Shown: positions 2,000 through 59,740 of the stretch, piece by piece | Position numbering within the stretch: position 1 is the first letter of the stretch | Layout of the letters: every line of letters starts with the position of its first letter | Assembly: GCA_964489835.1 (NCBI GenBank) | Contig: CAZBBC010000005.1 | Coordinates: 26,123 to 90,122 of the forward strand | DNA length: 64,000 nt | Reading direction: 5' to 3' | Origin: an uncultured Calditrichota bacterium | GTDB taxonomy: Bacteria > Calditrichota > Calditrichia > JAJRVZ01 | Made by a program: the position numbers and the translations under genes | Notes under the pieces: generated by a model | What the model was told of the DNA's origin: nothing | What the model saw: the letters and a program-made list of their open reading frames with translations, nothing else | Database searches by the model: none

Positions 2000-2066
2000 A
2001 CCACAGAGCACACGAAGTTTTTAAATATTTTTATTATCTTCGTGGGCTTCGCGCACTTCGTGGTTC
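2000..2066. repeat. heptamer inverted-repeat element (CACAGAG/CACGAAG arms flanking AT-rich loop)
   Basis: accacagagcacacgaag ... tttttaaatatttttattat ... cttcgtgggcttcgcgcacttcgtggtt; same architecture as elements at 17608, 34204, 42835, 50730, 57050. Confidence 0.6.
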
Positions 2067-3958: not shown

Positions 3959-4029
3959 CGCATCCTTCCCAATATCTTCAAACCGTCCATTTTCTTTGGG
4001 CTCTTTAAGAAAATTAACTCGATCGATAG

Positions 4030-13906: not shown

Positions 13907-14008
13907 AATTCGTGAAAATTCGTGTCAGTCTGCGCCTGATCCGGCTTCGACGGATAATTCGTGGACTTCTTTTTTGGATTGCAGCAATAGGCTGCGGCAT
14001 GAATAGAC
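13907..14008 (-). repeat. gene-end structured repeat, family A copy 1 (about 97% identical to 21437-21536)
   Basis: aattcgtgtcagtctgcgcctgatccggcttcgacggataattcgtggacttcttttttggattgcagcaataggctgcggcatgaatag; 3 mismatches in 91 nt against the reverse complement of 21437-21527; lies 88 nt 3' of the sialidase-like gene in the same relative orientation as the other copies. Confidence 0.8.
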
Positions 14009-14095
14009 CAGGCTAATTACCCAACCGTAATAAATCTAAAATAATATTTAATACAAACCAATCATTAATATAGGTCATTCGATTTATTGATGAGT

Positions 14096-17607: not shown

Positions 17608-17746
17608 AACCACGAAGCACACGAAGATATTATTATTGATTTTATAGAAAAAATGCAATACTAAAATTTGAACAGGAATTCCTTTATAGATTTACAATAA
17701 ATATTTTTTTTATGCTTTCGTGCTCTTCGTGCGCCTCGTGGTGATT
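17608..17746. repeat. heptamer inverted-repeat element (CACGAAG arms, 90-bp AT-rich core)
   Basis: left aaccacgaagcacacgaag; right ctttcgtgctcttcgtgcgcctcgtggtgatt (RC carries cacgagg/cacgaag/cacgaaa). Confidence 0.7.
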
Positions 17747-18760: not shown

Positions 18761-18944
18761 CTTATTCTTCTCTTAGTAATTCGAAATCATTGTTTTTTAA
18801 TATCATAGCACAGCCCAAGGCTGCAAATAAAGAACAAATAATCCGTGGATAAAAGTTTTTGACTGTAAAACAATAATGGTACAATATAATTTAAAAATAG
18901 CAGTTTTAAAATAGTATCATATGTTACGGTATCTGTTTATTTTT

Positions 18945-19000
18945 TGACAGGATAATCCCGACTGGGTCGGGATCCAAAAAACGGACAGGATTTACAGGAT
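18945..19000 (+). repeat. GACAGGAT-flanked hairpin motif, copy 1 (copy 2 at 51016-51074)
   Basis: ttttttgacaggataatcccgactgggtcgggatccaaaaaacggacaggat; 8-bp stem atcccgac/gtcgggat; about 88% identical to 51016-51074. Confidence 0.7.
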
Positions 19001-19347: not shown

Positions 19348-21435
19348 ATGGCCATCTTAAGCAAAGAAAAACAGCTTAAGAAAGAGCTGTCGTTATTCAA
19401 CATTTATACCATTGCCACTGGAGCCACCATTGCCTCTGGTTTCTTTCTGTTACCGGGTTTGGCCTATGCCCAGGCTGGTCCAGCCATGGTGCTTAGCTAT
19501 CTGATAGCGGCAATCCCGGTTATTCCGGCCTTGTTCAGCACATCTGAACTTTCGACAGCAATGCCGCGTGCCGGCGGCATTTATTTTTTCCTGGACCGCA
19601 GTATGGGGCCGCTAATGGGCACCATTGGTGGTATAGGAACCTGGCTGGCTCTGATACTGAAAACAGCTTTTGCATTGGTGGGTATTGGTGCCTATATGCG
19701 TTTGTTCTTACCTCAAATTCCAATGTTACCACTGGCTGCTTTTTTCGCCATTCTTTTTGGTATCGTCAATCTTTTAGGTGTAAAAAAAGCCGGTATCTTT
19801 CAGGGTATATTTGTTATAGGCCTGTTGCTGCTTCTGGGCCTATTTTCAGGAATCGGTTTAACATATTTGAATTTCCAGAATTTCAATGGTTTTTTTGACA
19901 AGGGATTCAATTCAATATTTGCTACCGCCGGTCTTGTTTATGTCAGTTATATCGGGCTTTCTAAGATCGCCAGTGTTTCTGAAGAAGTTAAAAATCCGGA
20001 TAAAACGATACCCTTGGCAATGTTTCTGGCACTGGGCACGGCGATTTTGGTATATACTATTGGTACTTTGGTTATGATCGAAGTGATACCGGCCGAAAAA
20101 TTAACCAACGATCTGACACCGGTAGCCTCCGCGGCCGAAATTATGATAGGAGAGTGGGGCGCGATCTTGATGACCACCGCTGCAATCTTGGCTTTTTTAT
20201 CAGTAGCAAATGCAGGAATTCTCAGTTGTTCACGCTATCCGCTGGCGATGAGCCGTGACCATCTAATGCCCCGTTTTTTGCGCTCTTTCAGTAAACAAAA
20301 AACGCCAAAATACGCTATCCTGATCACCGTAATATTTATTTTACTGATGCTCTTACTCCTTGATCCCGCAAAGATTGCTAAACTGGCCGGTGCCTTCCAG
20401 TTACTTCTTTTTGCACTGCTTTCACTTGCTGTTATTGTCATGAGGGAAAGCCGATTAGATTCTTATGATCCCGGATTCCGTTCCCCCTTATATCCATGGA
20501 TGCAAATTTTTGGGATGATTGCTCCCTGTTGGCTGATCATTGAAATGGGCTGGTTTCCGTCTATTTTTGCACTGGCATTGGTTGGATTGGGCACATTTTG
20601 GTATTTTTATTATGGAAAGAAAAGGGTCGTCAGGGACGGTGCCATTTACCATATTTTTGCCCGTCTTGGTCAGCGACAGTTCGAAGGTCTTGATATTGAA
20701 TTGAGAAGCATTTTAAAAGAAAAGGGTTTGCGTGATAAGGATCCGTTTGATGCTGTCGTTGCCAGTTCTGTATTTATTGATATTAATGAAAAAACTTCTT
20801 TTGAAGAAATCGTAAAAAAGGCCTCCTCAAGTTTATCAAAAAAATTTCACTGCGATGCCAAACTATTAGAAAGATCATTTATGGAGGGTACCCAAGTAGG
20901 GGCAACTCCGGTTTCACACGGTACCGCACTCCCGCACCTTCGTATTCAGGGAATGCCGCATTCTGAAATGATCATGGTTCGCACACAGATCGGCATCACG
21001 GTTGATTTTGATACAAATCTTTTAGGGGAGCAGGATGCGGATAATCCCATATATGCATTATTCTTTTTAGCCAGCCCGGAAGATAATCCGGGGCAGCATT
21101 TACGTATCCTGGCCCAGATTGCCAGCCATGTGGATAATGAAAATTTTATTAATCAATGGCTTGATGCCAATAATGAACAGGAATTAAAAGAGCTGCTTCT
21201 GCGGGAGGACCGGTATATCTCTTTGCAGCTGACAGCTGGTACAACAACCGAAACACTGATTAACTGTGAGATTCGAAACATTGAGCTGCCTGTGGGAAGT
21301 CTGATTGCGATCATTCACAGAAGGGGAGAAATGATAATTCCGAGAGGACAAACGGTTCTGCATGAGCATGACCGTTTAACCATTATCGGTTATCCCAAGG
21401 GTATTCAGGAATTGTACGATAAGTATTTAACCTGA
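19348..21435 (+). CDS. APC-superfamily amino-acid permease fused to PTS EIIA(Ntr/Fru-type) and TrkA_C regulatory domains
   Basis: 695 aa; roughly 12 TM permease domain (aa 1-430); EIIA-2 motif SHGTALPHLRIQG with conserved His; C-terminal TrkA_C-like GSLIAIIHRRGEMIIPRGQTVLHEHDRLTIIG. Confidence 0.8.
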   Translation: MAILSKEKQLKKELSLFNIYTIATGATIASGFFLLPGLAYAQAGPAMVLSYLIAAIPVIPALFSTSELSTAMPRAGGIYFFLDRSMGPLMGTIGGIGTWLALILKTAFALVGIGAYMRLFLPQIPMLPLAAFFAILFGIVNLLGVKKAGIFQGIFVIGLLLLLGLFSGIGLTYLNFQNFNGFFDKGFNSIFATAGLVYVSYIGLSKIASVSEEVKNPDKTIPLAMFLALGTAILVYTIGTLVMIEVIPAEKLTNDLTPVASAAEIMIGEWGAILMTTAAILAFLSVANAGILSCSRYPLAMSRDHLMPRFLRSFSKQKTPKYAILITVIFILLMLLLLDPAKIAKLAGAFQLLLFALLSLAVIVMRESRLDSYDPGFRSPLYPWMQIFGMIAPCWLIIEMGWFPSIFALALVGLGTFWYFYYGKKRVVRDGAIYHIFARLGQRQFEGLDIELRSILKEKGLRDKDPFDAVVASSVFIDINEKTSFEEIVKKASSSLSKKFHCDAKLLERSFMEGTQVGATPVSHGTALPHLRIQGMPHSEMIMVRTQIGITVDFDTNLLGEQDADNPIYALFFLASPEDNPGQHLRILAQIASHVDNENFINQWLDANNEQELKELLLREDRYISLQLTAGTTTETLINCEIRNIELPVGSLIAIIHRRGEMIIPRGQTVLHEHDRLTIIGYPKGIQELYDKYLT

Positions 21436-21436
21436 C

Positions 21437-21536
21437 CTATTCATACCGCAGCGTATTGCTGCAATCCAAAAAAGAAGTCCACGGATTATCCGTCGAAGCC
21501 GGATCAGGCGCAGACTGACACGAATTAACACGGATT
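21437..21536 (+). repeat. gene-end structured repeat, family A copy 2
   Basis: Starts 2 nt after the permease stop codon; reverse complement of copy 1. Confidence 0.8.
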
Positions 21537-21613
21537 AAAACTAAAATAATTATTAATAAATAATAACATCGCTGCGCCGCTGCGAGAAATGAAGAATTCG
21601 AGTACCAAAAATT

Positions 21614-27040: not shown

Positions 27041-27639
27041 ATTTAATTATCAGGGTAATGTTAAATAATATCCATAAGTATTTAATATTTGTTTTTATTG
27101 AATATTGAACAAGGATTAACAATTAACGAATTTTGAAGTAAAGTTGATTTAAAAATTTTTTGCTCATTTTTCCTGGAATACCATCGAAGGCTAACAAAGA
27201 AAAACCGATTTTTATTGTAATTCGAATTATAATTAATAAATTAAGCATATTCCTTTCATACCTGCCCAGATTTTTACTGTAACTAAATTATTTAGTAAAC
27301 TTCCGCTTTCGAGAATGATGACCAGCAGGTGATCGTATTTTTTAATACCCGGCATAAACAATTCTAGTATCAATATAAATCTGCCAATTGAATATTTAAT
27401 TGTAATACTATTTTGTACGCTAACCACGAAAAATATATGGGGAAAATGGTGGGGATAAGAAGAGATTATTAAAGATAAATGTCATGGGGCATAATGTGGA
27501 AAAATCGTAAAGGAAGAAAATATTTTATATATGGAATTATCTCAGCATAAAATTCTTTTGTCTTTTTTCTTTTGTCTTGGATTTGTTTGCAGCCTTGATC
27601 TGTGTTATGAATAGGTTAGGTTAATTAATTGAGGAGGAT

Positions 27640-34108: not shown

Positions 34109-34203
34109 TGGGTCCTTGTTTATCGGTTAGACAATGTGAAATTAATAATATTCCAGGAATTATAAAATTTTTGTATATTATGCTATTATGACTAATAGCT
34201 TAT

Positions 34204-34283
34204 ATCCACGGATTACACGGATTAAAACTAAAATAATAATAATTTTTAGATGAAATCCGTGCTAATCCGTGTAATCCGTGGAC
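34204..34283. repeat. heptamer inverted-repeat element (CACGGAT arms)
   Basis: atccacggattacacggatt ... aatccgtgctaatccgtgtaatccgtggac; followed at 34297-34330 by a family-A fragment tttgcagcagtgggctgtggtatgaatagatc. Confidence 0.7.
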
Positions 34284-34343
34284 AAATTCTTTTATGTTTG
34301 CAGCAGTGGGCTGTGGTATGAATAGATCAAATTAAAAAGCAGA

Positions 34344-34595: not shown

Positions 34596-34938
34596 CTATC
34601 TGAATGATTTCCCGTACAAATACCCCCTCGCATTCTTCCGGGCAGGGTTCCAGTCTAAATTTAAACAAACAATATTCCGGGCATTTCTCATCGCCCATCA
34701 AATTCCTGGAATAAACCGGGCCATTATAGAGATCTCTGAATTCTCCACTGAGCACAGACATCGTCGATTTACAGTAAAGATGATTAAAGAGAAAAAGACC
34801 ACCATCGAGGTCCTGAAAATGGGCCTGGTAACCAACCAGTTTTATAGCCGGGTCGCTTAAAAACTTATCGCGCGACAGCCAGGAATGATTACAATTGGGA
34901 CATTTTTTAAAGTGCTTTTTTCCGGAATCTGATTTCAT
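34558..34938 (-). CDS. Cys-rich zinc-ribbon-like small protein, last gene of the cbb3 cluster
   Basis: 126 aa; CPNC...CPEYC...CPEEC; ATGA overlap with fixH. Confidence 0.5.
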   Translation of the reverse strand: MKSDSGKKHFKKCPNCNHSWLSRDKFLSDPAIKLVGYQAHFQDLDGGLFLFNHLYCKSTMSVLSGEFRDLYNGPVYSRNLMGDEKCPEYCLFKFRLEPCPEECEGVFVREIIQIVKDWKKDPPANR

Positions 34939-35390
34939 CTAATTACCACCGTACCTTCTTCATAATAATCGGTTTGATTTAGTTGCCAGAATATTTTTAA
35001 CTTCCATAAGCCCGGGGACAAATGTTTTGTACTAACGGTGTGGCTACCGTCCGATAGCAGTTTTATAGCGATCAGCCGGTCCATCCGCGCATCGGAGGGG
35101 CGGAATAATAAAACATTTCCACTGATTAATCCATATTCCAGATTGGCCGGAAAATTTATCGTAAGTAATTTATCATCACTGTCATATTTCCAGATAACCG
35201 GATCAGATAATGACTTTGATCGTTGGATGCGATCAATTTGATTTTGGTACATTATTTCCTGCGTATAATAATCCTTCGTCACCAGATCATTGTTCTGATA
35301 TTGTGAAAAAATGACAAATGCCACCAATAGCAGTATGAATAAAAGGTAAACAGAAGCAATAGCCAGCGGCCAGAGACTGGATTTTCTCAT
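34935..35390 (-). CDS. fixH: FixH family protein
   Basis: 151 aa; N-terminal TM then FixH-domain; position after ccoG. Confidence 0.8.
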   Translation of the reverse strand: MRKSSLWPLAIASVYLLFILLLVAFVIFSQYQNNDLVTKDYYTQEIMYQNQIDRIQRSKSLSDPVIWKYDSDDKLLTINFPANLEYGLISGNVLLFRPSDARMDRLIAIKLLSDGSHTVSTKHLSPGLWKLKIFWQLNQTDYYEEGTVVIR

Positions 35391-36808
35391 TTTCTGTCTT
35401 TCTTTTGGTTTGGATCGGGACCGATAAAGGATGTCCTGACCTCCTCGAATATCTCCTGCCCGGAATATACGTCGATATAAACCGGGATTCGTGAAAACCG
35501 GATATTTTTTTTAGGAATTTCCACAAAAAAAGCAGATTCGGAAAGACCACCTTCAGGAACAGACAGAATTCCTCCCACCATTCTGATTGTCCCCTTTGGA
35601 GATTTAATCTTTAATTCAATGAATTTTTTCTCATAGGTTTTATTAATAACTTTTAAATTATACAAATTCAGGATATCACCTTTTTCATTTTCATTATATA
35701 ATAATCCGGGTGTACGCAAAATTGTTATCTCGACCGATGGGCGGTTAAATAAAAAGATATTAGTGACAAGAAGTAACACGAGTAAAATAGCGGAGTAACC
35801 GGCGATCCGTGGTGTAAATTTTAATTTTATCCCTTCGAGAATACCATTGTATGACGCATAGCGAATCAATCCGGTCGGCCAGTCCAGTTTTTTCATAACC
35901 GTATTACAGGTGTCGATACAGGCGGTACAATTGATACATTCCAGCTGAGTACCGTTCCGGATATCAATGCCGGTCGGACATACTACCACACATTGCCGGC
36001 AATCGATACAATCACCATTCTTTTTTCTGTCCCGATTTTTTTTATACTTTCCTCTCAGTTCACCACGTTTAAAATCATAAGCAACCACCAGTGAATTAGG
36101 ATCAAGTAATACCCCTTGCAAGCGTCCGTAGGGACAAACCATTGTACATACCTGTTCTCTGAAGAAGGCAAACACCCAGTAAAAAACAGCACTGAAAAGG
36201 ATCATGATGGATAGACCAATAAAGTGATCAGAAGGGGGATCGTTAATGATTTTGAGTAGTTGATCAGAACCGATGATATAGGCAAGAAATATATTACCGA
36301 TCAGAAAAGCAATTAAATAAAAGATCACATGTTTAAGGATTTTCTTAAATATTTTATTACCAGTCCATGGGGCTTTTGCCAGGGCAATTTGTTTACGTGC
36401 ATCCCCTTCAATCCAGTATTCAATCTTTCGAAAGACCATTTCCATAAAAACGGTCTGGGGACAGGCCCAGCCACACCATAAACGACCCATAATGACCGTG
36501 AATAAGACAATAAAAACGACCAGGGATATGGTGGACAGTACAAAGAGATAAAAATCCTGAGGCCAGAAAACCAATCCGAATAATACAAATTTGCGATTAA
36601 GAATATCGAATAAAAGAAAAGGATGCCCCTTTACTTTGATAAAAGGAGCAATAAATAAAAAGGCAAGCAGAAAAATAGCCACGATTTCCCGGGCACGGGT
36701 AAACGAACCTTTCGGTTTCTTAGGATAAATCCAAATCCTTTTCCCTTTTTCGTCGATGGTCGATACTTTATCACGATAGGCTTCTGTATCTTTTTGTGTG
36801 GCAGGCAT
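35387..36808 (-). CDS. ccoG: cytochrome c oxidase accessory protein CcoG (4Fe-4S ferredoxin-type membrane protein)
   Basis: CIDCRQCVVVCPTGIDIRNG...CINCTACIDTCN ferredoxin motifs; multiple TM. Confidence 0.9.
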   Translation of the reverse strand: MPATQKDTEAYRDKVSTIDEKGKRIWIYPKKPKGSFTRAREIVAIFLLAFLFIAPFIKVKGHPFLLFDILNRKFVLFGLVFWPQDFYLFVLSTISLVVFIVLFTVIMGRLWCGWACPQTVFMEMVFRKIEYWIEGDARKQIALAKAPWTGNKIFKKILKHVIFYLIAFLIGNIFLAYIIGSDQLLKIINDPPSDHFIGLSIMILFSAVFYWVFAFFREQVCTMVCPYGRLQGVLLDPNSLVVAYDFKRGELRGKYKKNRDRKKNGDCIDCRQCVVVCPTGIDIRNGTQLECINCTACIDTCNTVMKKLDWPTGLIRYASYNGILEGIKLKFTPRIAGYSAILLVLLLVTNIFLFNRPSVEITILRTPGLLYNENEKGDILNLYNLKVINKTYEKKFIELKIKSPKGTIRMVGGILSVPEGGLSESAFFVEIPKKNIRFSRIPVYIDVYSGQEIFEEVRTSFIGPDPNQKKDRK

Positions 36809-36831: not shown

Positions 36832-37692
36832 TTAATTCGAAAATATTTCCGCTTTCTCACCTTGTGGAGCCTTGGCATTAGGAGGATTTGAACCATGGAG
36901 GGTCAAAATATAACTGGCCACCTGGAGAATCTGCTCCTCTTTCAGAATGGATCGCCAGGAGATCATACCTTTGGCCGGGACGCCATTTAGGATAGTGGTA
37001 ATCATATTGCTTAGTGTGGGACCGTGGATAAAATATTCGTCGGTCAGGTTCGGCCCGATACCCCCTGCACCAAGTTTTCCGTGACAGGTTATACAATTGG
37101 TGATGTATATGGCTTCACCGGCCGATAAACTTCCGGTATCCGTTAATGGTTGAATAACTATTGCCGGTTCTTTTACCCCTATAATTTTTTCTTTTTCTAC
37201 GCTTTTCCCCTTCTGATACTCGGCCCAGATTTCGGGGAAATTGGTCTTCAGTTTATCCAGATCTTCACTACTGGCAACGCGCATCGCGGCAATCATAATT
37301 TCGTTGAAATTCAGATCCTGTATAGCAGAGCCGCCCCCCTCCTTCTCTTTTTGGGCAGCTAAAATTGCCGCTTCTTTTTCTTTCGCCAGGGCTGTTTGAA
37401 TACGGCTCAGCGGTGTAACCTCTTCAACAGATGTATAAAAAGGAGATTGATAGCCGATCGAAAATTTTGCGCCAGAAATTATTACTTCCTGTTGCGGATT
37501 CATTTCCTTCAAATATTCCACTTCCGATGAGTCACCGGTGCCCAAAACGTGAAAATAAATCAAATAAAAGATGCTCCAGATAATGGAAATGTAGAACAAC
37601 CACAACCACCAGGGCGGCAAATCATTGTCTAATTCCTTAATACCATCATAGTCTTGATCCAGCAAAACATCTTTTTCTTTCTTCTCAACCAT
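36832..37692 (-). CDS. ccoP: cbb3-type cytochrome c oxidase subunit III (CcoP), single CxxCH visible
   Basis: DGIKELDNDLPPWWLWLFYISIIW FixP N-terminus; CITCHG haem c site. Confidence 0.85.
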   Translation of the reverse strand: MVEKKEKDVLLDQDYDGIKELDNDLPPWWLWLFYISIIWSIFYLIYFHVLGTGDSSEVEYLKEMNPQQEVIISGAKFSIGYQSPFYTSVEEVTPLSRIQTALAKEKEAAILAAQKEKEGGGSAIQDLNFNEIMIAAMRVASSEDLDKLKTNFPEIWAEYQKGKSVEKEKIIGVKEPAIVIQPLTDTGSLSAGEAIYITNCITCHGKLGAGGIGPNLTDEYFIHGPTLSNMITTILNGVPAKGMISWRSILKEEQILQVASYILTLHGSNPPNAKAPQGEKAEIFSN

Positions 37693-37873
37693 GATTTAAA
37701 TCTCCGTTGCTATTGGATGAATCAAGCGGCAATTGTTTCATTTTGTTTAAATACTTTTTATCAACTTTAATACTCCAATATATCACACCCAGGAATATTA
37801 GAAAGAATAAGATCAGGGAGATTATACCATAGACTTCAATACCTGACATTGATTTAAATATATCTTTAAACAT
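37685..37873 (-). CDS. ccoQ: cbb3 oxidase small subunit CcoQ/FixQ-like
   Basis: 62 aa; single TM YGIISLILFFLIFLGVIYW; between ccoNO and ccoP. Confidence 0.6.
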   Translation of the reverse strand: MFKDIFKSMSGIEVYGIISLILFFLIFLGVIYWSIKVDKKYLNKMKQLPLDSSNSNGDLNHG

Positions 37874-37910
37874 TTTTCTCCCTAATCAGATAAATAATTT
37901 TATAAAAAAT

Positions 37911-38000
37911 AACCACCACGCCAGTAGGCGGATCCGCCCACTGGCGGGCTCAGAGTGATCCTCTGTGGGCTCTGCGTGCCCGCCTACTGGCGTGGTGGTT
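37911..38000 (-). terminator. intercistronic hairpin (21-bp perfect stem, 48-nt loop) with U-tract between ccoNO and ccoQ; candidate attenuator/partial terminator
   Basis: aaccaccacgccagtaggcgg (37911-37931) and ccgcctactggcgtggtggtt (37980-38000) are perfect reverse complements; on the minus strand the stem is followed by AUUUUUUAUAAAAUU; the stem begins at the ccoNO stop codon. Confidence 0.65.
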
Positions 38001-40126
38001 TAGTTCTTATTATCCCCTTTAATGTCTGTTCCTAGTCGTTGCAGATAGGCAATCAGAGCAATGATTTCCTTATCTGATTTGGTCTCAATACCGGCTTCCT
38101 TCAGCCTTGCCTTGATCTCTTCTGCCTGATGTTTAAGATCGGGTAGCGCTTTTTTATCATAATCGGTTGGATAAGGAACACCAAGACTTTGCATGATACG
38201 GATTTTCCGCTCTGTGGAAGACGTATTTAGTTGATTGGTAATCAACCAGGGAAAGGGCGGCATTATCGAACCCGGTGACATGAGTTCCGGTTCTAGCATA
38301 TGATTATAATGCCAGGCATCAGGATATCGGCCACCCTCACGGTGCAGATCAGGACCGGTCCGTTTTGAGCCCCATTGGAAAGGGTGATCGTAAACGAATT
38401 CTCCGGCTTTTGAATATTCACCGTATCGTTCCGTTTCTGATCGGAACGGACGGATCATTTGTGAGTGACAGTTATAACAACCTTCCCGCACATAAATATC
38501 CCGGCCTTCCAGTTCAAGAGGTGTATATGGTTTTACACTCATGATGGTTGGTATATTAGATTTAACCAGAAACGTTGGAATTACCTCAACCAGGCCACCG
38601 ATTAATATGGCAATAATGGCGGCGATAGAAAACTGTATCGGCCGGCTTTCCAGCCAGCGGTGGGCATATATCTTACCGGTTTCATGGATTTTCTGCACTT
38701 GGAGGGGAAGGGCTTTTGCCTTTTCATCGGCGACGATCGAGCCTCTTTTCACTGTTCTGGCCAGATTGACTATCATAAAGACAACACCGGTATAATAAAG
38801 TGTACCGCCTATGGCCCGCAGGATGTACATGGGAACAATCTGTAATACGGTTTCGAGAAAAAGTGGATATTGCAGATAACCCTCGGCAGTAAATTCTTTC
38901 CACATCAAACCCTGGGTAATACCGGCCCAATACAAAGGTATGACGTAGAAGATCATCCCCAGGGTGGCTATCCAGAAGTGAAAATTTGCCAGTTTTATAG
39001 AGAAAAGTTTCGTATTGTAAAGACGTGGAATCAGCCAGTAAAGAATGCCAAAGGTAAGTAAGCCATTCCAACCCAGGGTACCGACATGTACATGGGCGAT
39101 TGTCCAATCGGTATAATGCGAGAGCGCATTAATGCTTTTTATTGCCAGCATAGGACCTTCAAAGGTGGCCATGCCGTAGGCGGTAACTGCAACGACCATA
39201 AATTTGAGTATGGGATCTTCGCGCACGCGATCCCAGGCCCCACGAAGCGTAAGCAAACCATTCAACATCCCCCCCCAGGACGGAGCGATTAGCATGATAG
39301 AAAATACCGTGCCTAAGGATTGTGCCCAGTCGGGGAGAGCGGTATAGAGTAAATGATGTGGTCCGGCCCAGATATAGATAAAAATTAAGGACCAGAAATG
39401 GACAATTGACAAACGATAAGAATAAATCGGCCGGTTAGCCGCTTTTGGAAGAAAATAATACATCAAACCCAAATAAGGTGTGGTAAGAAAAAAAGCAACG
39501 GCATTATGACCATACCACCATTGAACAAGGGCGTCCTGCACGCCGGCATAAACCGGATAACTCTTAAGAAAGGTCACCGGAATTTCAATTGAATTCACCA
39601 CATGCAGAATTGTTATTGTAAAGAAAGTGGCAAGATAAAACCAGATGGCCACATACATATGTCTTTCTCGGCGTTTTATAATCGTACCGATCATATTGAT
39701 ACCAAAAGCCAGCCAAATAACAGCGATAGCAACATCGATCGGCCATTCCAGTTCCGCATATTCCTTGCTGGCGGTAATACCGAGGGGTAAGGTGATGGCG
39801 GCCGATAAAATGATCAGCTGCCAGCCCCAGAAGTGAAATTTACTCAGGAAATCATTGTACATCCTTGATTTGCACAAACGCTGCAAAGAATAATAGATAC
39901 CCATGAATATGCCGTTTCCAACAAAAGCAAAAATAACTGCATTGGTATGTAAGGGCCGGATTCGGCTGAACGTGGTGAAGGGAATACCGAGATTCCATGC
40001 AGGCAAGAACATCTGGAAAGCAATGATAAGGCCGACAAGCATGCCGACGGAACCCCACAGTATCGTAGCAAATGCAAAGTTCCGTACTATCCTGTTGTCA
40101 TAACTAAATGTCTCAAACCCAGCCAT
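38000..40126 (-). CDS. ccoNO: cbb3-type cytochrome c oxidase fused subunits I+II (CcoN-CcoO)
   Basis: 708 aa; 12+ TM haem-copper oxidase domain with conserved His; C-terminal CcoO part with CYNCHSQMIRP. Confidence 0.95.
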   Translation of the reverse strand: MAGFETFSYDNRIVRNFAFATILWGSVGMLVGLIIAFQMFLPAWNLGIPFTTFSRIRPLHTNAVIFAFVGNGIFMGIYYSLQRLCKSRMYNDFLSKFHFWGWQLIILSAAITLPLGITASKEYAELEWPIDVAIAVIWLAFGINMIGTIIKRRERHMYVAIWFYLATFFTITILHVVNSIEIPVTFLKSYPVYAGVQDALVQWWYGHNAVAFFLTTPYLGLMYYFLPKAANRPIYSYRLSIVHFWSLIFIYIWAGPHHLLYTALPDWAQSLGTVFSIMLIAPSWGGMLNGLLTLRGAWDRVREDPILKFMVVAVTAYGMATFEGPMLAIKSINALSHYTDWTIAHVHVGTLGWNGLLTFGILYWLIPRLYNTKLFSIKLANFHFWIATLGMIFYVIPLYWAGITQGLMWKEFTAEGYLQYPLFLETVLQIVPMYILRAIGGTLYYTGVVFMIVNLARTVKRGSIVADEKAKALPLQVQKIHETGKIYAHRWLESRPIQFSIAAIIAILIGGLVEVIPTFLVKSNIPTIMSVKPYTPLELEGRDIYVREGCYNCHSQMIRPFRSETERYGEYSKAGEFVYDHPFQWGSKRTGPDLHREGGRYPDAWHYNHMLEPELMSPGSIMPPFPWLITNQLNTSSTERKIRIMQSLGVPYPTDYDKKALPDLKHQAEEIKARLKEAGIETKSDKEIIALIAYLQRLGTDIKGDNKN

Positions 40127-40129
40127 AAA

Positions 40130-40318
40130 CTAGCTCTCCTTACTTTTACTATGATTCCCCGTATTTCCGGAATCACTCTTTTTATCCTCGAAGAGGATTC
40201 TGACTTTTGGTGTATATTTATCTTCAAACTGTCCGCTTTTAACCGCCCATAAAAAGGCAATTAGAAATCCTATGGCCACCAGTAAACTGGCTAATATCAG
40301 TAAAAACATAGCACTCAT
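40130..40318 (-). CDS. ccoS: cbb3 oxidase maturation protein CcoS
   Basis: 62 aa; TM then WAVKSGQFED CcoS motif. Confidence 0.8.
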   Translation of the reverse strand: MSAMFLLILASLLVAIGFLIAFLWAVKSGQFEDKYTPKVRILFEDKKSDSGNTGNHSKSKES

Positions 40319-42765
40319 AATCGAAAACCCAATTTTTTCCCGATAAAAGCAGTGGCACCGATAGTAAATAAAATAACCGTGAGTGAACTGGCGGGCATCA
40401 GAACGGCTGCAATCAGAGGCGAAAGAGTCCCCCTTACAGCAAAAAATAAACCAACAATATTATATATAAATGAAATTAAAAAACTAATAAAAATAATCCT
40501 AATACTAATCTTTGAAAATCTCAGAAATTGGGGTAAGTGCTTGAACTGACTGGCATCCAAAATACCATCGGAAGCCGGTGTAAAGGTGTTGACATCCTCA
40601 GAAATCGAAATGCCGGCATCGCTTTGCATGAGGGCCCCTGCATCATTGAGCCCATCCCCGATCATCAGAACTTTCCCGGATTTCTGTTGAATATTCTTAA
40701 TAAAATTCAATTTGTCATAGGGAGTCTGATTAAAGAACAAGTATTTACCGTTACCAAATACGCGGGCCAGATTTTCTTTTTCTCCATCGTTGTCACCGGA
40801 AAGCAAATAAACCCGGAAGCGATTGCCTAATCGCTCGATCATCCGTCTGATCCCTTTCCGGTAATTAAGAGGAAGACTGAAATATCCCCGATATTTCCCG
40901 TTGATCTCTACATGAACAATACTTGCCAGGGATTGATTTGAAAGATAGATTGCATTTGGAATTAACCGTTCGGATCCTAGTTTTACCCTATTACCGGAAA
41001 TATTTCCGGTCAGGCCCTGACCCGGATACTCCATGAAATCGGTTATGCTCGGCAATTGATCAGCCTTTATAGCCGAATAGAGACGTCTGCTCAGGGGATG
41101 CGTTGATTGTTTTACCAGTGACCGGACCCATTGAATTTCCTCCGGATTCAGACCGTGAGGACGATCTTTAGTTGGGTTGAAGGCGACAGATGATCCACCG
41201 GAATGGGTCAACGTTCCGGTTTTGTCAAATACAATCGTTTGTACTTTGGCGAGTATCTCAATTATGGATACATTTTTAAGATAAAAATTATTTTTGCCGA
41301 AAATTCGTAAGGTATTACCCAGTGTAAAAGGTGTTGAAAGAGCCAGAGCACAGGGACAGGCAACAATAAGTACGGCAGTAAAGGCATTAAGTGCCAGCGA
41401 TATATTTTCCGGCAGCCAATACATGGCCGATAAGGTGGCCACACTTAAAACAATAAAAGTAAAATACCTGCTAACGGTATTGGCCAGGGTGGTAATTTTG
41501 CTTTCATTCGTATGCTTGTTGAATGCATCATCGTTCCAAAGTTGGGTTAGGTAACTTTGGGAAACATCTTTTATCACCTCCATCTCAATCTGGCTGCCGA
41601 TATGCATCCCTCCGGCATATATGATATCCCCGGAAATTTTCTCAACCGGTGTAGACTCACCGGTGACAAAGCTGTAATCGACTAATGAGGGACCCTTGAT
41701 CAGGACGCCATCAGCGGGAATTAATTCTTTATTGGCAAGTATAATTCTGTCACCAATTTTAAGTTTAGCCAGGGGAATAATAACTTCTTTGTTTTTTTCT
41801 TTCCGGGTTACAGAAAGGGGAAAATAAGAACGATAATCACGATCAAAAGAAAGAGCATCATACGTTTTTTTCTGAAAGAGTTTTCCGACTAAAAGTAGAA
41901 ATACCAAACCAGCAAAAGAATCCAGATAACCACCTCCCTCGCCGGCAACAATATGCCAGATACTGCGGCTAAACAGAGTAATAATCCCAAGGGAAATTGG
42001 GACGTCCATATTGACAGATGCTTGTTTTAGGGATGTAAGGGCTGATTTGAAGTAGCCCATACTGCTATAGAATAAAACAGGTAGGGCAAGAAAAATACTT
42101 AAATAACCAAAGAAAGACCGGAATTCCAGATCAAGAGTTTCATTGACCGCCAGATATTCAGGGAAACTCAGGAGCATAATATTGCCGAAAGCAAAACCGG
42201 CGACTCCGATCTGCAGATAAAGTTCTTTATCCGTGCTTTTTTGCAACTGTTTCCGGATAGAGGCTAAATTAATCTCCGGTTCATATCCGAGGGAAGAGAG
42301 AACTTCAACGATTTTTCGCAGCGAGGTTTTGGTCTCAAGAAAAGCGAGAGATAATTCTTTTCGTAAAAAATTTACTTTTGATTCAATAATACCAGGATCA
42401 ACCCGGTAGAGATTTTCCAGCAACCAAATACAAGAACTGCAGTGGATCATGGGAATCTTGAAGGAGACTTTGTTGATATTGCCGTCGCTAAAATTCAGTA
42501 ATTGACGTTTAACAGTATTATCATCCAAATAACTATACTTAGAAGAAATACCTGATTCCAGTGGTGTGGTTCCCGGGGCCCGGGCCAGCGAATAATAAGC
42601 ACAGAGATCCTTCTCTTCTAATAATTCATACACCAATCGACAGCCATTACAGCAAAACACCTTTTCACCAATTTGGATATTGGTATTGGGGCATGAATCG
42701 CCACAGTGATAGCATTCAATTCGGGCATCTTTTGCCTTGATTTTCGATTTCTGAACAGTATTCAT
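40315..42765 (-). CDS. ccoI: copper-translocating P1B-type ATPase (CcoI/FixI)
   Basis: N-terminal CYHCGDSC metal site; CPC in ACPCALALSTP; DKTGTLT; GDGLNDAGAL. Confidence 0.9.
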   Translation of the reverse strand: MNTVQKSKIKAKDARIECYHCGDSCPNTNIQIGEKVFCCNGCRLVYELLEEKDLCAYYSLARAPGTTPLESGISSKYSYLDDNTVKRQLLNFSDGNINKVSFKIPMIHCSSCIWLLENLYRVDPGIIESKVNFLRKELSLAFLETKTSLRKIVEVLSSLGYEPEINLASIRKQLQKSTDKELYLQIGVAGFAFGNIMLLSFPEYLAVNETLDLEFRSFFGYLSIFLALPVLFYSSMGYFKSALTSLKQASVNMDVPISLGIITLFSRSIWHIVAGEGGGYLDSFAGLVFLLLVGKLFQKKTYDALSFDRDYRSYFPLSVTRKEKNKEVIIPLAKLKIGDRIILANKELIPADGVLIKGPSLVDYSFVTGESTPVEKISGDIIYAGGMHIGSQIEMEVIKDVSQSYLTQLWNDDAFNKHTNESKITTLANTVSRYFTFIVLSVATLSAMYWLPENISLALNAFTAVLIVACPCALALSTPFTLGNTLRIFGKNNFYLKNVSIIEILAKVQTIVFDKTGTLTHSGGSSVAFNPTKDRPHGLNPEEIQWVRSLVKQSTHPLSRRLYSAIKADQLPSITDFMEYPGQGLTGNISGNRVKLGSERLIPNAIYLSNQSLASIVHVEINGKYRGYFSLPLNYRKGIRRMIERLGNRFRVYLLSGDNDGEKENLARVFGNGKYLFFNQTPYDKLNFIKNIQQKSGKVLMIGDGLNDAGALMQSDAGISISEDVNTFTPASDGILDASQFKHLPQFLRFSKISIRIIFISFLISFIYNIVGLFFAVRGTLSPLIAAVLMPASSLTVILFTIGATAFIGKKLGFRL

Positions 42766-42834
42766 CGGTTTTGATCAATTTATAAATTTTTCTTGCATTT
42801 TTGGAGTCGCATACCGTGTTGATCTTAATATCAA

Positions 42835-42953
42835 CTTCGAAGAACACGAAGCACACGAAGTTTTTAATTATTAATATAATTTTTGTGTTAACTTCGATTT
42901 TGATAAAAAAATAGTCAATATAATATCTTTGTGACCTTCGTGGACTTCGTGGT
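42835..42953. repeat. heptamer inverted-repeat element (CACGAAG arms)
   Basis: cttcgaagaacacgaagcacacgaag ... ctttgtgaccttcgtggacttcgtggt. Confidence 0.7.
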
Positions 42954-43128
42954 AAAAGCTTTTTATATGTTCTAATTTGAACGGCCACAGGCCGTCGCTC
43001 ACCCAAGGGTGAGCCCTAGGATCTTTGCGTAATCTTTGTGGTCAAAAATTTACCCTGCTAGTTACTAATTTTGATTAGTTTTTATCTTCAGGGTAATCTG
43101 ATAATACATAAAATTTAGAAAAAGCCGT

Positions 43129-43839
43129 TTAGAAAAGCCAATAGAATCTCATCCAGCCAAGGGCATCAATACCGCGTAAGATCGTCACCAATGCCAGGAT
43201 CATGACCATAACGGCAGCCAGCCGGTATAGGCGATGCCGTATCTTAGCAGATATCAGATGTGCGGATAAACCGGTAATCAACATAGCTGGGAGGGTGCCC
43301 AGACCGAAGACAAGCATGGTCAGCATTCCACCGACAAAGCTCTGGGTGGCAGCTGCTTTGGCACCGGCTGCATATACCAAACCGCAGGGTAAAAATCCTA
43401 AAATCAGACCCAGGCCAAAAATATTTCTTCGATTGACACGGTTAAATAAAGAGGTGATCATACGTTTAAAAATATTGACACCGGGAAAAGAATCCGGGGT
43501 CAGAGAAGGAATCCAGCCGGCCAGTTCGATACCCATAAAGAGCATGATAACACCCGCGAATAGCTGTAAAGAACCTTGAAAATCCCGAATGGCAAAGATT
43601 ATACCCAGGGTACTGCCAATCAGGCCAAAAATTTCACCCAAAAAGGTATAGGTCAGTATCCTCCCGCCATTATAGAAAACATGTGGTTTGATCGTCTGCC
43701 ATTTTGAGGGTTTAAAGATCGGATCATTTTCCCCGACTTTTAAGGTATAGGTAAGTACAATACCACCACACATTCCGATGCAATGGCTGAATCCGCCGAG
43801 AAATCCTATCAGAAAAAGAGCTATAAAGTCAATATTCAT
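43129..43839 (-). CDS. DsbD_2/TauE-SafE-like membrane protein with HCxGMCGG motif
   Basis: 236 aa; LIGFLGGFSHCIGMCGGIVL in TM1; about 6 TM; adjacent to the cbb3 maturation genes. Confidence 0.6.
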   Translation of the reverse strand: MNIDFIALFLIGFLGGFSHCIGMCGGIVLTYTLKVGENDPIFKPSKWQTIKPHVFYNGGRILTYTFLGEIFGLIGSTLGIIFAIRDFQGSLQLFAGVIMLFMGIELAGWIPSLTPDSFPGVNIFKRMITSLFNRVNRRNIFGLGLILGFLPCGLVYAAGAKAAATQSFVGGMLTMLVFGLGTLPAMLITGLSAHLISAKIRHRLYRLAAVMVMILALVTILRGIDALGWMRFYWLF

Positions 43840-43868
43840 TATCCAAAACTTTTTTAAAATAGTACATA

Positions 43869-43883
43869 TTGATAATTTATCAA
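43869..43883. promoter_or_regulatory. perfect 7-1-7 palindrome TTGATAA-T-TTATCAA, 30-44 nt upstream of the DsbD_2-like start; candidate Fur-family-type operator
   Basis: ttgataatttatcaa; resembles Fur/Zur/PerR 7-1-7 boxes. Confidence 0.3.
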
Positions 43884-44044
43884 TAAAACATCATAAGTGT
43901 CTGGTTAGAAGGTAAATCATTGAAAATTTTTACCATAATTTCAAATGGTTTATAGATTTAAGAAACATAAAGATTTAATTAAAAGAACTCGCTCTAAATT
44001 TCCGCCAAAGGGCAGATCCGCCTACCGGTTCGACCTTTCTTTAG

Positions 44045-44160
44045 TATAGACTGGAGACATAGGTAACACTATATTTCCTTTTTACTTGGACAAAAACTCT
44101 CCCCCTATCCCCCTCTTTTGAAAAGAGAGGGGGAATTTTATTCATGAAACGTAATGAAAA
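44045..44160 (+). repeat. intergenic tandem-duplicated element, copy 1 (hairpin ccccctct/agaggggg + T-tract + atgaaacgtaatgaaaatgcaag)
   Basis: About 70-nt core near-identical to 44425-44510. Confidence 0.7.
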
Positions 44161-44394
44161 TGCAAGATTTCTTCTAAATGCAATAAAGAAAAGAATAGTA
44201 TTTGCAGTAAATATTAATCGGATTCTGCTCCCCTTCTCTTCTCAAGAGAAGGGGCTGGGGGATGAGTTTTTTAAATATAAAAAGAATAAACTTTATTTAA
44301 CCGGACACTAATGATATAAAATACTTAATAAGTAGGGATAATCAAAAAATAATAACTACCCCTCCATTGTTGTTTTGACCAGAGAGATGGATAA

Positions 44395-44525
44395 AAGGAT
44401 CCGGGGACATAGTTTACACTTTTTGTATCTTCTACTTGGATATAAACTCTCCCCCTGACCCCCTCTCTTGAAAAGAGAGGGGGAATTTTATTCATGAAAC
44501 GTAATGAAAATGCAAGAATTCTTTA
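44395..44525 (+). repeat. intergenic tandem-duplicated element, copy 2
   Basis: acttggatataaactctccccctgaccccctctcttgaaaagagagggggaattttattcatgaaacgtaatgaaaatgcaagaattc. Confidence 0.7.
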
Positions 44526-44632
44526 ATAGAAATCAAAATAATGGGTGGGAGAAGGAAATGCTTTGTTAAATTTTGAGGGTTTAATTAAATTCTTCAACAG
44601 ATACAAAGATTTATTAAAAATTGAGGTTGTGA

Positions 44633-47760: not shown

Positions 47761-47836
47761 ACCCACCCCGTCTCGCTACGCTCGACACCCCTCCCTATCC
47801 GGCAAAGCCGGACAGAGAGGGGATGGGTGATGGTCA
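47761..47836 (+). repeat. GC-rich nested-hairpin element, copy 1
   Basis: acccaccccgtctcgctacgctcgacacccctccctatccggcaaagccggacagagaggggatgggtg. Confidence 0.75.
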
Positions 47837-48034
47837 CTTATGAATTATTTGTTTGCAGCCCTGGGCCGCGTTATAAATAGTTCAGGTTAATAATTCGGGC
47901 AAAAATATTCTTAAAATAAATTAATTTACATTTAAAAACAAATTGAATTAAATTTTGAAAACGATAAAAAATAAATATCGGAAAACAATCTTTACAATTT
48001 CTGCATCGTTAAGGATATAATCAGTCTTGTTATT

Positions 48035-50661: not shown

Positions 50662-50666
50662 AGAAA

Positions 50667-50744
50667 TCAGCTAATTAGCCTGATCTATTCATAGCGCAGC
50701 GATGCTGCAAACAAAAAAAAATAGTCCACGGATTCCACGGATTT
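50667..50744 (+). repeat. gene-end structured repeat, family A copy 3 (diverged), starts 6 nt after the GT22-like stop
   Basis: gctaattagcctgatctattcatagcgcagcgatgctgcaaacaaaaaaaaatagtccacggattccacggatt. Confidence 0.65.
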
Positions 50745-50919
50745 TATTTAAAAATTATTATTATTTTATTTTTTAATCCGTGCAAATCAGTTTCCGCCAT
50801 GTTGTATATCCCGTTTCACGGGATAGGAGGATCCGCTGTGGCGGATAATCTGCGTCATCCGTGTTCTATTAATATCGCTGCGGCGCTGTGAGAAATTAAT
50901 TATTCCGCTTTGTACAAAT

Positions 50920-50958: not shown

Positions 50959-51015
50959 ACGAGCCCATGGCTATAAAAAAGAAATAAATCAATCACTCCC
51001 GATGGAGGAATTTTT

Positions 51016-51074
51016 TAGACAAGATAATCCCGACAAAGTCGGGATCCAAAAAACGGACAGGATGGCAGGATAAA
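51016..51074 (+). repeat. GACAGGAT-flanked hairpin motif, copy 2
   Basis: ttttttagacaagataatcccgacaaagtcgggatccaaaaaacggacaggat. Confidence 0.7.
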
Positions 51075-55039: not shown

Positions 55040-55110
55040 ACCCACCCCGTCTCGCTACGCTCGACGCCCCTCCCTGTCAGGCTTTGCCAGACAGGGAGGG
55101 GTGACCTTTA
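55040..55110 (+). repeat. GC-rich nested-hairpin element, copy 2
   Basis: gacccaccccgtctcgctacgctcgacgcccctccctgtcaggctttgccagacagggaggggtgac; 14 nt after the xth stop. Confidence 0.75.
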
Positions 55111-57001: not shown

Positions 57002-57049
57002 TGAATGCTCACCAGCTTAAAATGGGTAGTTTAAAAAAATAACCACAGA

Positions 57050-57130
57050 GTAAACAGAGTAAATATTTAATATTTATTGAATTAAAGAATTTATTTTTTA
57101 CCCCTCTCTGTGGCCTCTGTGGTTGTGTTT
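57050..57130. repeat. heptamer inverted-repeat element (CACAGAG arms)
   Basis: aaccacagagtaaacagagtaaa ... ccctctctgtggcctctgtggtt. Confidence 0.7.
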
Positions 57131-59559: not shown

Positions 59560-59667
59560 AAACTTACCTTTGATTTTTGATAATTCTTTTGCTAAAATCT
59601 CAATCTTTATATTAATTACCATATTAGCATTACGCAGCCTATGGCTGCAAACAAAATAAATATTTCT

Positions 59668-59740
59668 AACCCTCCCCCAGCCCCTCCCTGCTTGCAGGGA
59701 GGGGTGTCGACCCGCCTCAGGCGGGGAGACGGGGTGGGTA
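59668..59740 (-). repeat. GC-rich nested-hairpin element, copy 3 (inverted)
   Basis: cccctccctgcttgcagggagggg ... gagacggggtgggt (RC of acccaccccgtctc). Confidence 0.7.

Follow-up and report, generated by a model that had tools for sequence, protein, structure and literature searches.

A putative REPIN/MITE-like insertion between ccoNO and ccoQ in a Calditrichia cbb3-oxidase cluster

The cbb3-oxidase cluster and the hairpin behind ccoNO

The window analysed here, 64 kb of contig CAZBBC010000005.1 from an uncultured Calditrichota bacterium (assembly GCA_964489835.1), is placed in Calditrichia by the homologues of its CcoNO and carries a cbb3-oxidase cluster at 34.5-43.8 kb, a co-directional run of genes that all lie on the minus strand (Table 1). 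The subject of this work is an inverted repeat of 21 bp with 100% complementarity, situated between ccoNO and the open reading frame (ORF) in the position of ccoQ; its arms enclose 48 nt, and the whole structure is 90 nt long. The downstream 62-aa ORF finds no support in Pfam or NCBIfam and is called ccoQ from its position alone. Hairpin coordinates refer to the plus strand of the window.

On the plus strand the arms read AACCACCACGCCAGTAGGCGG (37911-37931) and CCGCCTACTGGCGTGGTGGTT (37980-38000); the arm 21-mer occurs at a single locus in the window, and 100 shuffles gave no match. The stop codon TAA of ccoNO occupies 38002-38000, its last A being the first base of the stem, and the hairpin fills 90 of the 126 nt that separate ccoNO from the 62-aa ORF. 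Past the stem the transcribed strand continues with AUUUUUUAUAAAAUUAUUUAUCUGAUUAGGGAGAAAAAUG, and the next ATG (37873) follows after 37 nt. The first-pass annotation had reported a perfect 21-bp stem with a U tract between ccoNO and ccoQ, beginning at the ccoNO stop codon and holding GC-rich sub-palindromes in its 48-nt loop, and our analysis confirms these observations: AUUUUUUAU directly abuts the fully complementary stem, and the minimum-energy fold shows three inner hairpins.

On the mRNA strand the element has the sequence AACCAC-CACGCCAGUAGGCGG-GCACGC-AGAGCCCACAGAGGAUCACUCUGAG-CCCGCCAGUGGGCGG-AU-CCGCCUACUGGCGUG-GUGGUU. It holds a 12-mer in three copies, namely A (GCCAGUAGGCGG), B (GCCAGUGGGCGG) and C, the complement of A. 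Arm C has two mutually exclusive partners, arm A (21 bp) or copy B (12 bp, with a GAUC loop), and the local B:C pairing corresponds to a 28-nt palindrome around GGATCC. Each 14-mer CCGCC-NNNN-GGCGG forms a mini-hairpin by itself. On the transcribed strand, GTAG (copy A) or GTGG (copy B) stands directly 5' of GCGG, and in arm C GTAG is found on the opposite strand. Arms and interior together carry three copies of this GT(A/G)G-tagged, GC-rich module, which resembles a repetitive extragenic palindromic (REP) sequence.

Table 1. Positions of the genes, hairpin parts and repeats discussed in the text (window coordinates unless a related or unrelated locus is named)
Feature	Position	Strand	Remarks
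DsbD_2-like gene	43129-43839	-	heads the cco cluster
ccoI	40315-42765	-	
ccoS	40130-40318	-	62 aa
ccoNO	38000-40126	-	fused CcoN and CcoO, 708 aa; Pfam COX1 9.5e-120, FixO 1.8e-100
ORF in CcoQ position	37685-37873	-	62 aa; conserved in relatives; Shine-Dalgarno-like GGGAG at 37878-37882
ccoP	36832-37692	-	
ccoG	35387-36808	-	intact, 473 aa
fixH	34935-35390	-	
Arm A	37980-38000	-	5' arm in the mRNA, AACCACCACGCCAGUAGGCGG; contains GCCA-GUAG-GCGG
48-nt interior	37932-37979	-	three small hairpins predicted (multi-branch junction)
CACAGAG-unit core	37949-37974	-	CAGAGCCCACAGAGGAUCACUCUGAG; shares homology with the left end of the element found at this junction in L004
Copy B of the 12-mer	37934-37945	-	local pairing with arm C as alternative to A:C
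Arm C	37911-37931	-	3' arm, CCGCCUACUGGCGUGGUGGUU; perfect complement of arm A
28-nt REP-like palindrome	37919-37946		CGCCAGTAGGCGGATCCGCCCACTGGCG, i.e. GT(A/G)G + GCGGATCCGC + C(C/T)AC
U tract	37902-37910	-	immediately 3' of the stem
Decayed copy of the 30-nt palindrome	44002-44031		23/30 matches, best shuffle 19; upstream of the DsbD_2-like gene
AACCAC family member	2000-2066		ACCACAGAGCACACGAAG...CTTCGTGGTT
AACCAC family member	17608-17743		AACCACGAAGCACACGAAG...CCTCGTGGT; between two co-directional genes
AACCAC family member	42843-42953		in the DsbD_2-to-ccoI spacer; not in the 95%-identical sister locus L001
AACCAC family member	57041-57124		AACCACAGAGTAAACAGAG, AT-rich centre, CTCTGTGGCCTCTGTGGTT; between divergent genes
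DsbD_2-to-ccoI spacer	42766-43128		related loci: L001 236-361; L004 171-274; L005 321-327; L007 247-337
Perfect 30-nt palindrome, L070 (= L082)	7549-7578		
Perfect 30-nt palindrome, L078	3904-3933		
45-nt repeat	13973-14017, 27581-27625, 34292-34336, 47847-47891	+	
45-nt repeat, inverted	18803-18831, 21421-21472, 50665-50700, 59628-59690		
Hairpins of 9-nt units	34193-34294, 50714-50790, 21517-21557, 13909-13926		
62-nt GC-rich repeat	47761-47822, 55040-55101		87% identical
52-nt repeat	18940-18991, 51012-51063		90% identical
Divergent spacer	43840-44632		793 nt, repeat-packed
121-nt direct repeat	44053-44173, 44403-44523		within the divergent spacer
Stretch without ORF >= 70 aa	1944-3806		1.86 kb

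The predicted structure is very stable. A 141-nt RNA folds at -67.9 kcal/mol, compared with -35.7 +/- 3.7 kcal/mol for shuffles (z = -8.6), and its minimum-energy fold contains 19 of the 21 stem pairs as a 19-bp outer helix as well as the inner hairpins GGGC/GCCC, CAGAG/CUCUG and CCGCC/GGCGG. In prefix folding, which compares energies and not kinetics, B:C pairing is best at prefix 108, where only the first part of arm C is out, and A:C pairing from prefix 111 on, ahead of the synthesis of the U tract.

The hairpin resembles an intrinsic terminator in that a G+C-rich stem of 19-21 bp directly abuts the U tract UUAUUUUUU, with six U among the first eight nucleotides past the stem and an A-rich stretch upstream of it. 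It departs from the short-loop form (about 3-8 nt) with its interior of 48 nt and three sub-hairpins, and because of this long interior it escapes a consensus terminator scan. No sigma-70-like promoter was called in the stretch from the hairpin to the next ATG, the nearest minus-strand match lying inside the 62-aa ORF. No Rfam family reaches its gathering score in the window; local matches stay far below (E about 0.06 to 8). At the RNA level the element probably acts in three ways, as a leaky terminator, as a 3' stabiliser and as an obstacle to the terminating ribosome.

The ccoNO-ccoQ junction in related Calditrichia

We compared seven related Calditrichia loci and read the orthologous ccoNO-ccoQ junction in each. 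In L005/L006 (75% nucleotide identity to the window in ccoNO) and in L106 (88-90% over the 3' part of ccoNO, ccoQP and ccoG, with an identical CcoQ) the stop codon of ccoNO overlaps the next start in TAATG (GAATAATG in L005/L006), there is no spacer, and CcoNO ends in KGE*. L007 (74%) has about 30 nt without a hairpin and the C-terminus KGESASGM*. The group of L001-L003, L009, L103-L105 and L108-L109 (95%, as measured for L001 and L009) has a 234-nt spacer filled by a different palindromic repeat, GATTGCTTCGC...CGCAATGACG / CGTCATTGCGAG...GAAGCAATC; this spacer is seen only partially or via its length in L009, L108 and L109, and the C-terminus KGDNPSGF* was read in L001, L003 and L009. L008 (89.5%, KGDNPSGY*) carries yet another insert with ACGCAGAGTACGCTGAGAACGCAAAG units. 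The hairpin of the window is absent from L001-L003, L005-L009 and L103-L106. Only L004 (88%) has a related, though different, element of 287 nt, and it is located at the same nucleotide.

The junction of L004 reads CTAA followed by ACCACAGAGCCCACAGAGAATCACTCTGTG, about 230 nt of AT-rich sequence, ...GCTCTGTGGTGGTT and then TTATTTTTTA, a tail which also follows the element in the window. In both loci the CcoNO tail PSGF* is replaced by KN*, giving KGDNKN*, and AACCAC... comes directly after it. When the two elements are aligned, that of the window lacks the AT-rich interior of L004 and has 21 extra nucleotides at its left end, which are the exact complement of its right arm.

As read from these junctions, the comparison shows that ccoNO and ccoQ ancestrally either overlapped in TAATG, with translational coupling, or were separated by a short spacer. 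The insertion would have disrupted this tight or overlapping junction, and the A-rich left flank of the insert (AAGAACTAA) would have supplied two codons and a stop, turning KGDNPSGF* into KGDNKN*. If the insert brought in its own stop codon, the position of the stem right at this codon would be accounted for.

The ccoNO-ccoQ junction is a hot spot, with a different repeat in almost every lineage of the near clade. The spacer between the DsbD_2-like gene and ccoI is equally hypervariable and ranges from 7 nt in L005 to 363 nt in the window, the repeat modules differing from lineage to lineage; in L001 and L004 it measures about 125 nt and contains a different GC-rich repeat. We also observed that ccoG, which is intact in the window and in L106 (473 aa in both), is lost or disrupted in the 95%-identical sister lineage: ccoP lies directly before fixH in L002, L003, L103 and L105, and the gene is split into 266 + 64 aa in L001 and L104.

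Repeat families in the element and its probable origin

The ends of the element and its CACAGAG core belong to a family of intergenic AACCAC...GTGGTT hairpins with four other copies in the window. The family is built from tandem 9-nt units CAC[AG][AG]AG, a tandem motif that occurs six times in the window, each time between genes, versus 0.01 times in shuffles. Its copies sit in divergent, co-directional and convergent spacers alike, and therefore they are not simply terminators of the host. They show some properties of miniature inverted-repeat transposable elements (MITEs), with AACCAC...GTGGTT as terminal inverted repeats, lengths of 90 nt at our junction, 287 nt in L004 and 65-135 nt in the other window copies, and locations at unrelated sites; the copies at 37911 and 42843 are both missing from L001. 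The stems of the other members are 81-89% complementary compared to 100% in the ccoNO-ccoQ hairpin, and therefore the perfect stem may well be young. It could have arisen by template switching, in which 21 nt of the right arm's complement were copied into the left end, or by recent transposition. A metagenome scan with the core GCCCACAGAGRATCACTCTG returned no match and missed even L004, so that the collection appears to contain none of the relevant samples. As a separate observation, the long ORF-free stretch near the left end of the window (Table 1) starts with a hairpin of the AACCAC type.

The other component is the GC-rich module. REPs are palindromes with GTAG in front of them and are arranged as inverted pairs (PMC8266576); the defining GTAG (or GTGG) tetranucleotide immediately precedes the palindrome on its 5' side and stays unpaired as a tag (PMC8266576, PMC3733652). 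A REPIN consists of two REPs in inverted orientation with a diverse spacer between them, and singlets are its decaying remnants (PMC8049555). The ccoNO-ccoQ spacer holds an extragenic palindrome of 28 nt, within the 20-50 nt expected of a REP, and the two inverted 21-nt arms around a 48-nt spacer have the layout of a REPIN. The core had also been annotated as recurring at 44014 and 50828, which holds only in part. A decayed copy of the palindrome is indeed present at the first of these places (Table 1), at the second there is just a 14-nt mini-hairpin (50832-50845, TCCGC-TGTG-GCGGA), and the exact string GGATCCGCC recurs at neither.

Outside the window, TTTTTTCCGCCAGTAGGCGGATCCGCCTACTGGCGGAAAA occurs in a Paceibacterota metagenome-assembled genome (MAG) of 30% GC (L070, on the same contig as L082) and CCGCCAGTGGGCGGATCCGCCTACTGGCGG in an unassigned metagenome contig of 40% GC (L078). 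The palindrome at both loci is perfect over 30 nt, differs little from window 37919-37946 and is lengthened by a T run on one side and an A run on the other. Variants of the form ATCCGCCAGTAGGCGGAC-N-GTCCGCCTACTGGCGGAT are found in L089, L094 and L099, surrounded by further small hairpin "words"; some of these are CACGA[A/G/C]-type and ATTCGTG units similar to the ones in the window. A scan of a genome collection for the palindrome arms returned 66 loci, mostly ordinary hairpins in high-GC genomes, none of them in Calditrichota or identical with the window locus; in both large scans most other matches were ordinary high-GC hairpins and were treated as background. Viral scans with three patterns gave two generic hairpins only, a BLAST search of the element against plasmids and phages gave chance matches only (26-32 nt, E of about 0.3), and a full-text literature search for the four 14-mers retrieved no paper with these strings. 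We also noticed a REP-like family in the Alcaligenaceae MAG CAYUHJ01, with hairpins of roughly 60 nt, GCCGCCCACGCCAGTGGGCGGG-loop-CCCGCCCACTGGCGTGGGCGGC, at 10 loci (L014, L017, L020, L022, L032, L050, L051, L057, L069 and L073); these hairpins and the arm of the window hairpin have CACGCCAGTrGGCGGG in common.

The identity of the 28-30-nt palindrome across phyla could reflect either horizontal spread or convergence. With occurrences in Calditrichota, Paceibacterota and other low-GC metagenome lineages, one could go further and regard the mini-hairpin module CCGCCAGTRGGCGG as part of a cross-phylum hairpin "vocabulary" that builds mosaic stop-codon/hairpin/U-tract units, the ccoNO copy being a switch that senses ribosome position; we consider this unlikely.

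On comparison of its motifs with these repeats, the element is shown to be a mosaic, with the ends and core of the AACCAC...GTGGTT family combined with the REP-like module. We hypothesize, with a probability of roughly 0.7, that the hairpin arose in a lineage-specific event, when a small, non-coding palindromic repeat of REPIN/MITE-like type inserted into the last codons of ccoNO. By analogy, its architecture, with inverted tagged units, a variable spacer, a decayed copy nearby, a mosaic composition and a site just past a stop codon, is that of REPs, bacterial interspersed mosaic elements (BIMEs) and REPINs, and its inverted ends and presence/absence pattern are those of a MITE.

Several observations weigh against this assignment. 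GT(A/G)G pairs with CTAC/CCAC of the opposite arm, unlike the unpaired 5' tag of classical REPs. The 64 kb hold one intact element and one decayed copy, and the 21-nt arm occurs once only. No clear target-site duplication is recognizable beside any copy in the window, and neither a REP-associated tyrosine transposase (RAYT) nor another transposase is encoded among the 52 window ORFs of at least 70 aa plus the 62-aa ccoS and ccoQ-position ORFs; no insertion sequence was found among the window ORFs. RAYT genes are usually present once per genome, and their location in it is not predictable from that of the repeats. Moreover, the element is common to the window and L004 (88% nucleotide identity) and missing from closer relatives (95%). 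Because of this patchy distribution (window and L004, not L001, L009 or L106), either two insertions at the same site or a transfer of the junction by recombination is needed. The last 40 nt of ccoNO, which match L004 in 36 of 40 positions and L001 in 33 of 40, in contrast to the whole gene (95% to L001, 88% to L004), are the sole and weak hint in favour of recombination.

Other repeats are present in the window (Table 1). One of roughly 45 nt, TTTGTTTGCAGC-N-GCTGyG-yTATGAATAG-TCAGGyTAAT, has at least eight copies, most of them just past the 3' ends of genes and with a short GCAGC/GCTGC hairpin; it reaches the gathering score of no Rfam family. Tandem 9-nt units CACGGATT / AATCCGTG (or ATTCGTG) form hairpins, one of which is found shortly past the 3' end of the cco operon, and similar units flank the palindrome module in L099. 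A GC-rich 62-nt repeat, ACCCACCCCGTC...CCCTCCCT...AGGGAGGGG, has two window copies; its family fills the DsbD_2-to-ccoI spacer in L001 (about 255-330) and L004 (about 205-275), and not that of the window. The divergent spacer upstream of the cluster holds, besides its direct repeat, hairpins of the type CCCCCTCT...AGAGGGGG and the word CCCCTTCTCT...AGAGAAGGGGCTG, which also occurs in L078 at 4027-4055. The 52-nt repeat contains the hairpin ATCCCGAC-NNN(N)-GTCGGGAT followed by CCAAAAAACGGACAGGAT.

Consequences for expression and comparison with known systems

If the hairpin is such an insertion, several effects on the operon can be predicted. A helix of 19-21 bp beside UUAUUUUUU would terminate part of transcription, or it may instead block 3' exonucleases, so that the ccoNO message would outlast the distal part. 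Translational coupling between ccoNO and ccoQ would have been removed, and a ribosome that terminates on ccoNO would have to melt the stem because the stem starts at the stop codon. On this model, these effects at the RNA level would be tolerated by-products of the insertion and not a conserved regulatory design.

Could the inserted repeat instead be a passive passenger without measurable effect? The polymerase would then read through, the ribosome would melt the stem, and the operon would be expressed as in the relatives. Very different inserts are tolerated at both the ccoNO-ccoQ and the DsbD_2-to-ccoI junction, a Shine-Dalgarno-like GGGAG is kept before the 62-aa ORF, and closure of the stem across 48 nt should be slow, the local B:C hairpin forming first (prefix 108). 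On the other hand, the complete A:C helix is the minimum-energy fold from prefix 111 on, before the U tract is made (in energies, not kinetics), and the stability of the structure is far above that of shuffles. According to two papers, E. coli REPs in comparable positions do change expression (PMC12306157, PMC8049555); both report effects of REPs on termination and mRNA half-life, and the former, citing Liang et al. 2015, states that REPs at most 15 nt from a stop codon stall ribosomes and lower expression (PMC12306157). We regard complete inertness as improbable.

The first-pass annotation had proposed an attenuator within the operon, that is, a dedicated terminator selected for an excess of CcoNO over CcoQ, CcoP, CcoG and FixH. 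What stands of this proposal is the terminator-like form: a strong hairpin directly abuts UUAUUUUUU within a co-directional gene run. Both the window and L004 retain the TTATTTTTTA tail, and the downstream genes ccoG and fixH encode assembly factors that are plausibly needed at lower levels. The part that is not supported is the device evolved to set subunit ratios, and the comparison with relatives, proposed as a check, speaks against it. The hairpin is missing from the closest relatives, TAATG overlaps take its place in L106 and L005, other repeats fill the junction elsewhere, and on these data we rejected a conserved regulator. Moreover, the element is composed of repeat modules that are also found elsewhere in the window and in unrelated genomes, and the long interior is non-canonical and escapes the terminator scan. 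CcoP, whose gene comes second behind the hairpin, next to the 62-aa ORF, belongs to the core of cbb3 oxidases and is needed 1:1 with CcoN/O, and thus there is no obvious rationale for expressing ccoP at a lower level than ccoNO. An evolved attenuator is not supported because the hairpin is not conserved and CcoP is needed in equal amount, and we consider it unlikely.

A more elaborate possibility is a switch in which a ribosome on the ccoNO stop codon covers arm A and leaves arm C to pair with copy B, in a non-terminating hairpin that ends 9 nt before the U tract; with arm A free, the A:C terminator would form, so that read-through into ccoQP would be tied to the coupling of transcription and translation. 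The presence of the 12-mer in triplicate, C being complementary to A as well as to B, the succession of B:C and A:C as minimum-energy folds and the start of arm A on the stop codon would all suit such a mechanism. Against it stand the short dwell time of a ribosome at a stop codon and the lack of conservation of the arrangement in the relatives, and the mosaic origin of the element is a simpler explanation of the triple repeat. Such a switch seems very unlikely to us. The inverted duplication might also be spurious and have been introduced when the MAG was assembled, a suspicion raised by a stem length of 21, which is a common minimum k-mer size, and by the resemblance of the left arm to a 21-nt insertion relative to L004. 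Such an artefact is hardly credible for a position amid a long contig with orthologous flanks on both sides, and we judged it unlikely given the related element at the same nucleotide in the independent assembly of L004 and the copies of the palindrome module in several further independent assemblies.

For annotation, a striking hairpin inside an operon should thus not be read as an evolved attenuator by default. The seven related loci suggest that in this case a recent repeat insertion took the place of a translationally coupled overlap and changed the C-terminal codons of the catalytic subunit. They also provide a natural allelic series at one operon junction, with an empty site, the window hairpin and three other inserts; in this respiratory operon the series could serve to measure the effects of palindromic repeats on termination, on mRNA stability and on translational coupling. 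The near-identical palindromes of 28-30 nt in one MAG each of Calditrichia and Paceibacterota and in further metagenome contigs, in every case part of mosaic hairpin arrays, contrast with the usual view of REP-like families as lineage-specific and merit a genome-wide census. In our view the allelic series and the cross-phylum module are the parts most worth following up.

Among known systems, the element resembles the REPs, BIMEs and REPINs of Proteobacteria, which are mobilised by RAYT (TnpA-REP) and are likewise short, GC-rich extragenic palindromes. The palindrome core is immediately preceded by GT(A/G)G (GTAG-GCGGATCCGC-CTAC), and two inverted copies around a diverse spacer give a hairpin of roughly 90 nt, as described for REPINs (PMC8049555). 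A decayed copy nearby and mosaic arrays with other motifs, as in BIMEs, are further similarities, as is the site just past a stop codon (PMC12306157). It differs from them in the pairing of its GT(A/G)G with a complement, in the lack of a RAYT among the window ORFs and in its host phylum, Calditrichota; moreover, its module is also present in a Paceibacterota MAG, whereas a REP family does not, as a rule, extend beyond one species or genus.

As regards position, REPs of the malE-malF and nrdAB type in E. coli (the latter at most 15 nt from a stop codon; Liang et al. 2015) are similarly stable palindromes within an operon near the upstream stop codon; the malE-malF spacer REP is reportedly an intra-operon case (Newbury 1987, as cited in PMC5317091). 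The predicted structure in the window is much larger (90 nt, multi-branch) and has its own U tract. In such an intra-operon position, shielding of the upstream message from 3' exonucleases and hindrance of the terminating ribosome are expected (PMC12306157). Intrinsic terminators have the G+C-rich stem directly before a U-rich tract in common with the window hairpin, whose "loop" of 48 nt (usually 3-8), location inside an operon and lack of conservation set it apart.

The Correia/NEMIS elements of Neisseria, enterobacterial ERIC and the RPE of Rickettsia are MITEs that fold as RNA hairpins. Such hairpin MITEs have terminal inverted repeats and lengths of 80-300 nt, are patchily distributed among close relatives, insert in gene ends and operon spacers, and occasionally donate codons and stop codons. 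The window element shares their inverted ends, size, patchy presence, insertion sites and, putatively, codon donation; it differs in that no sequence similarity to them was found and no target-site duplication is definable, and we know of no autonomous partner element. In the same phylum, a REP-like 18-nt palindrome, aAACCGTTgaAACGGTTt, has been described in Caldithrix abyssi (PMC5317091). It is likewise an intergenic palindromic repeat that prefers sites downstream of genes, but its sequence is unrelated, much shorter and simpler. The hairpin behind ccoNO, understood as an insertion, is a further member of the known class of palindromic REPIN/MITE-like repeats, in Calditrichota.

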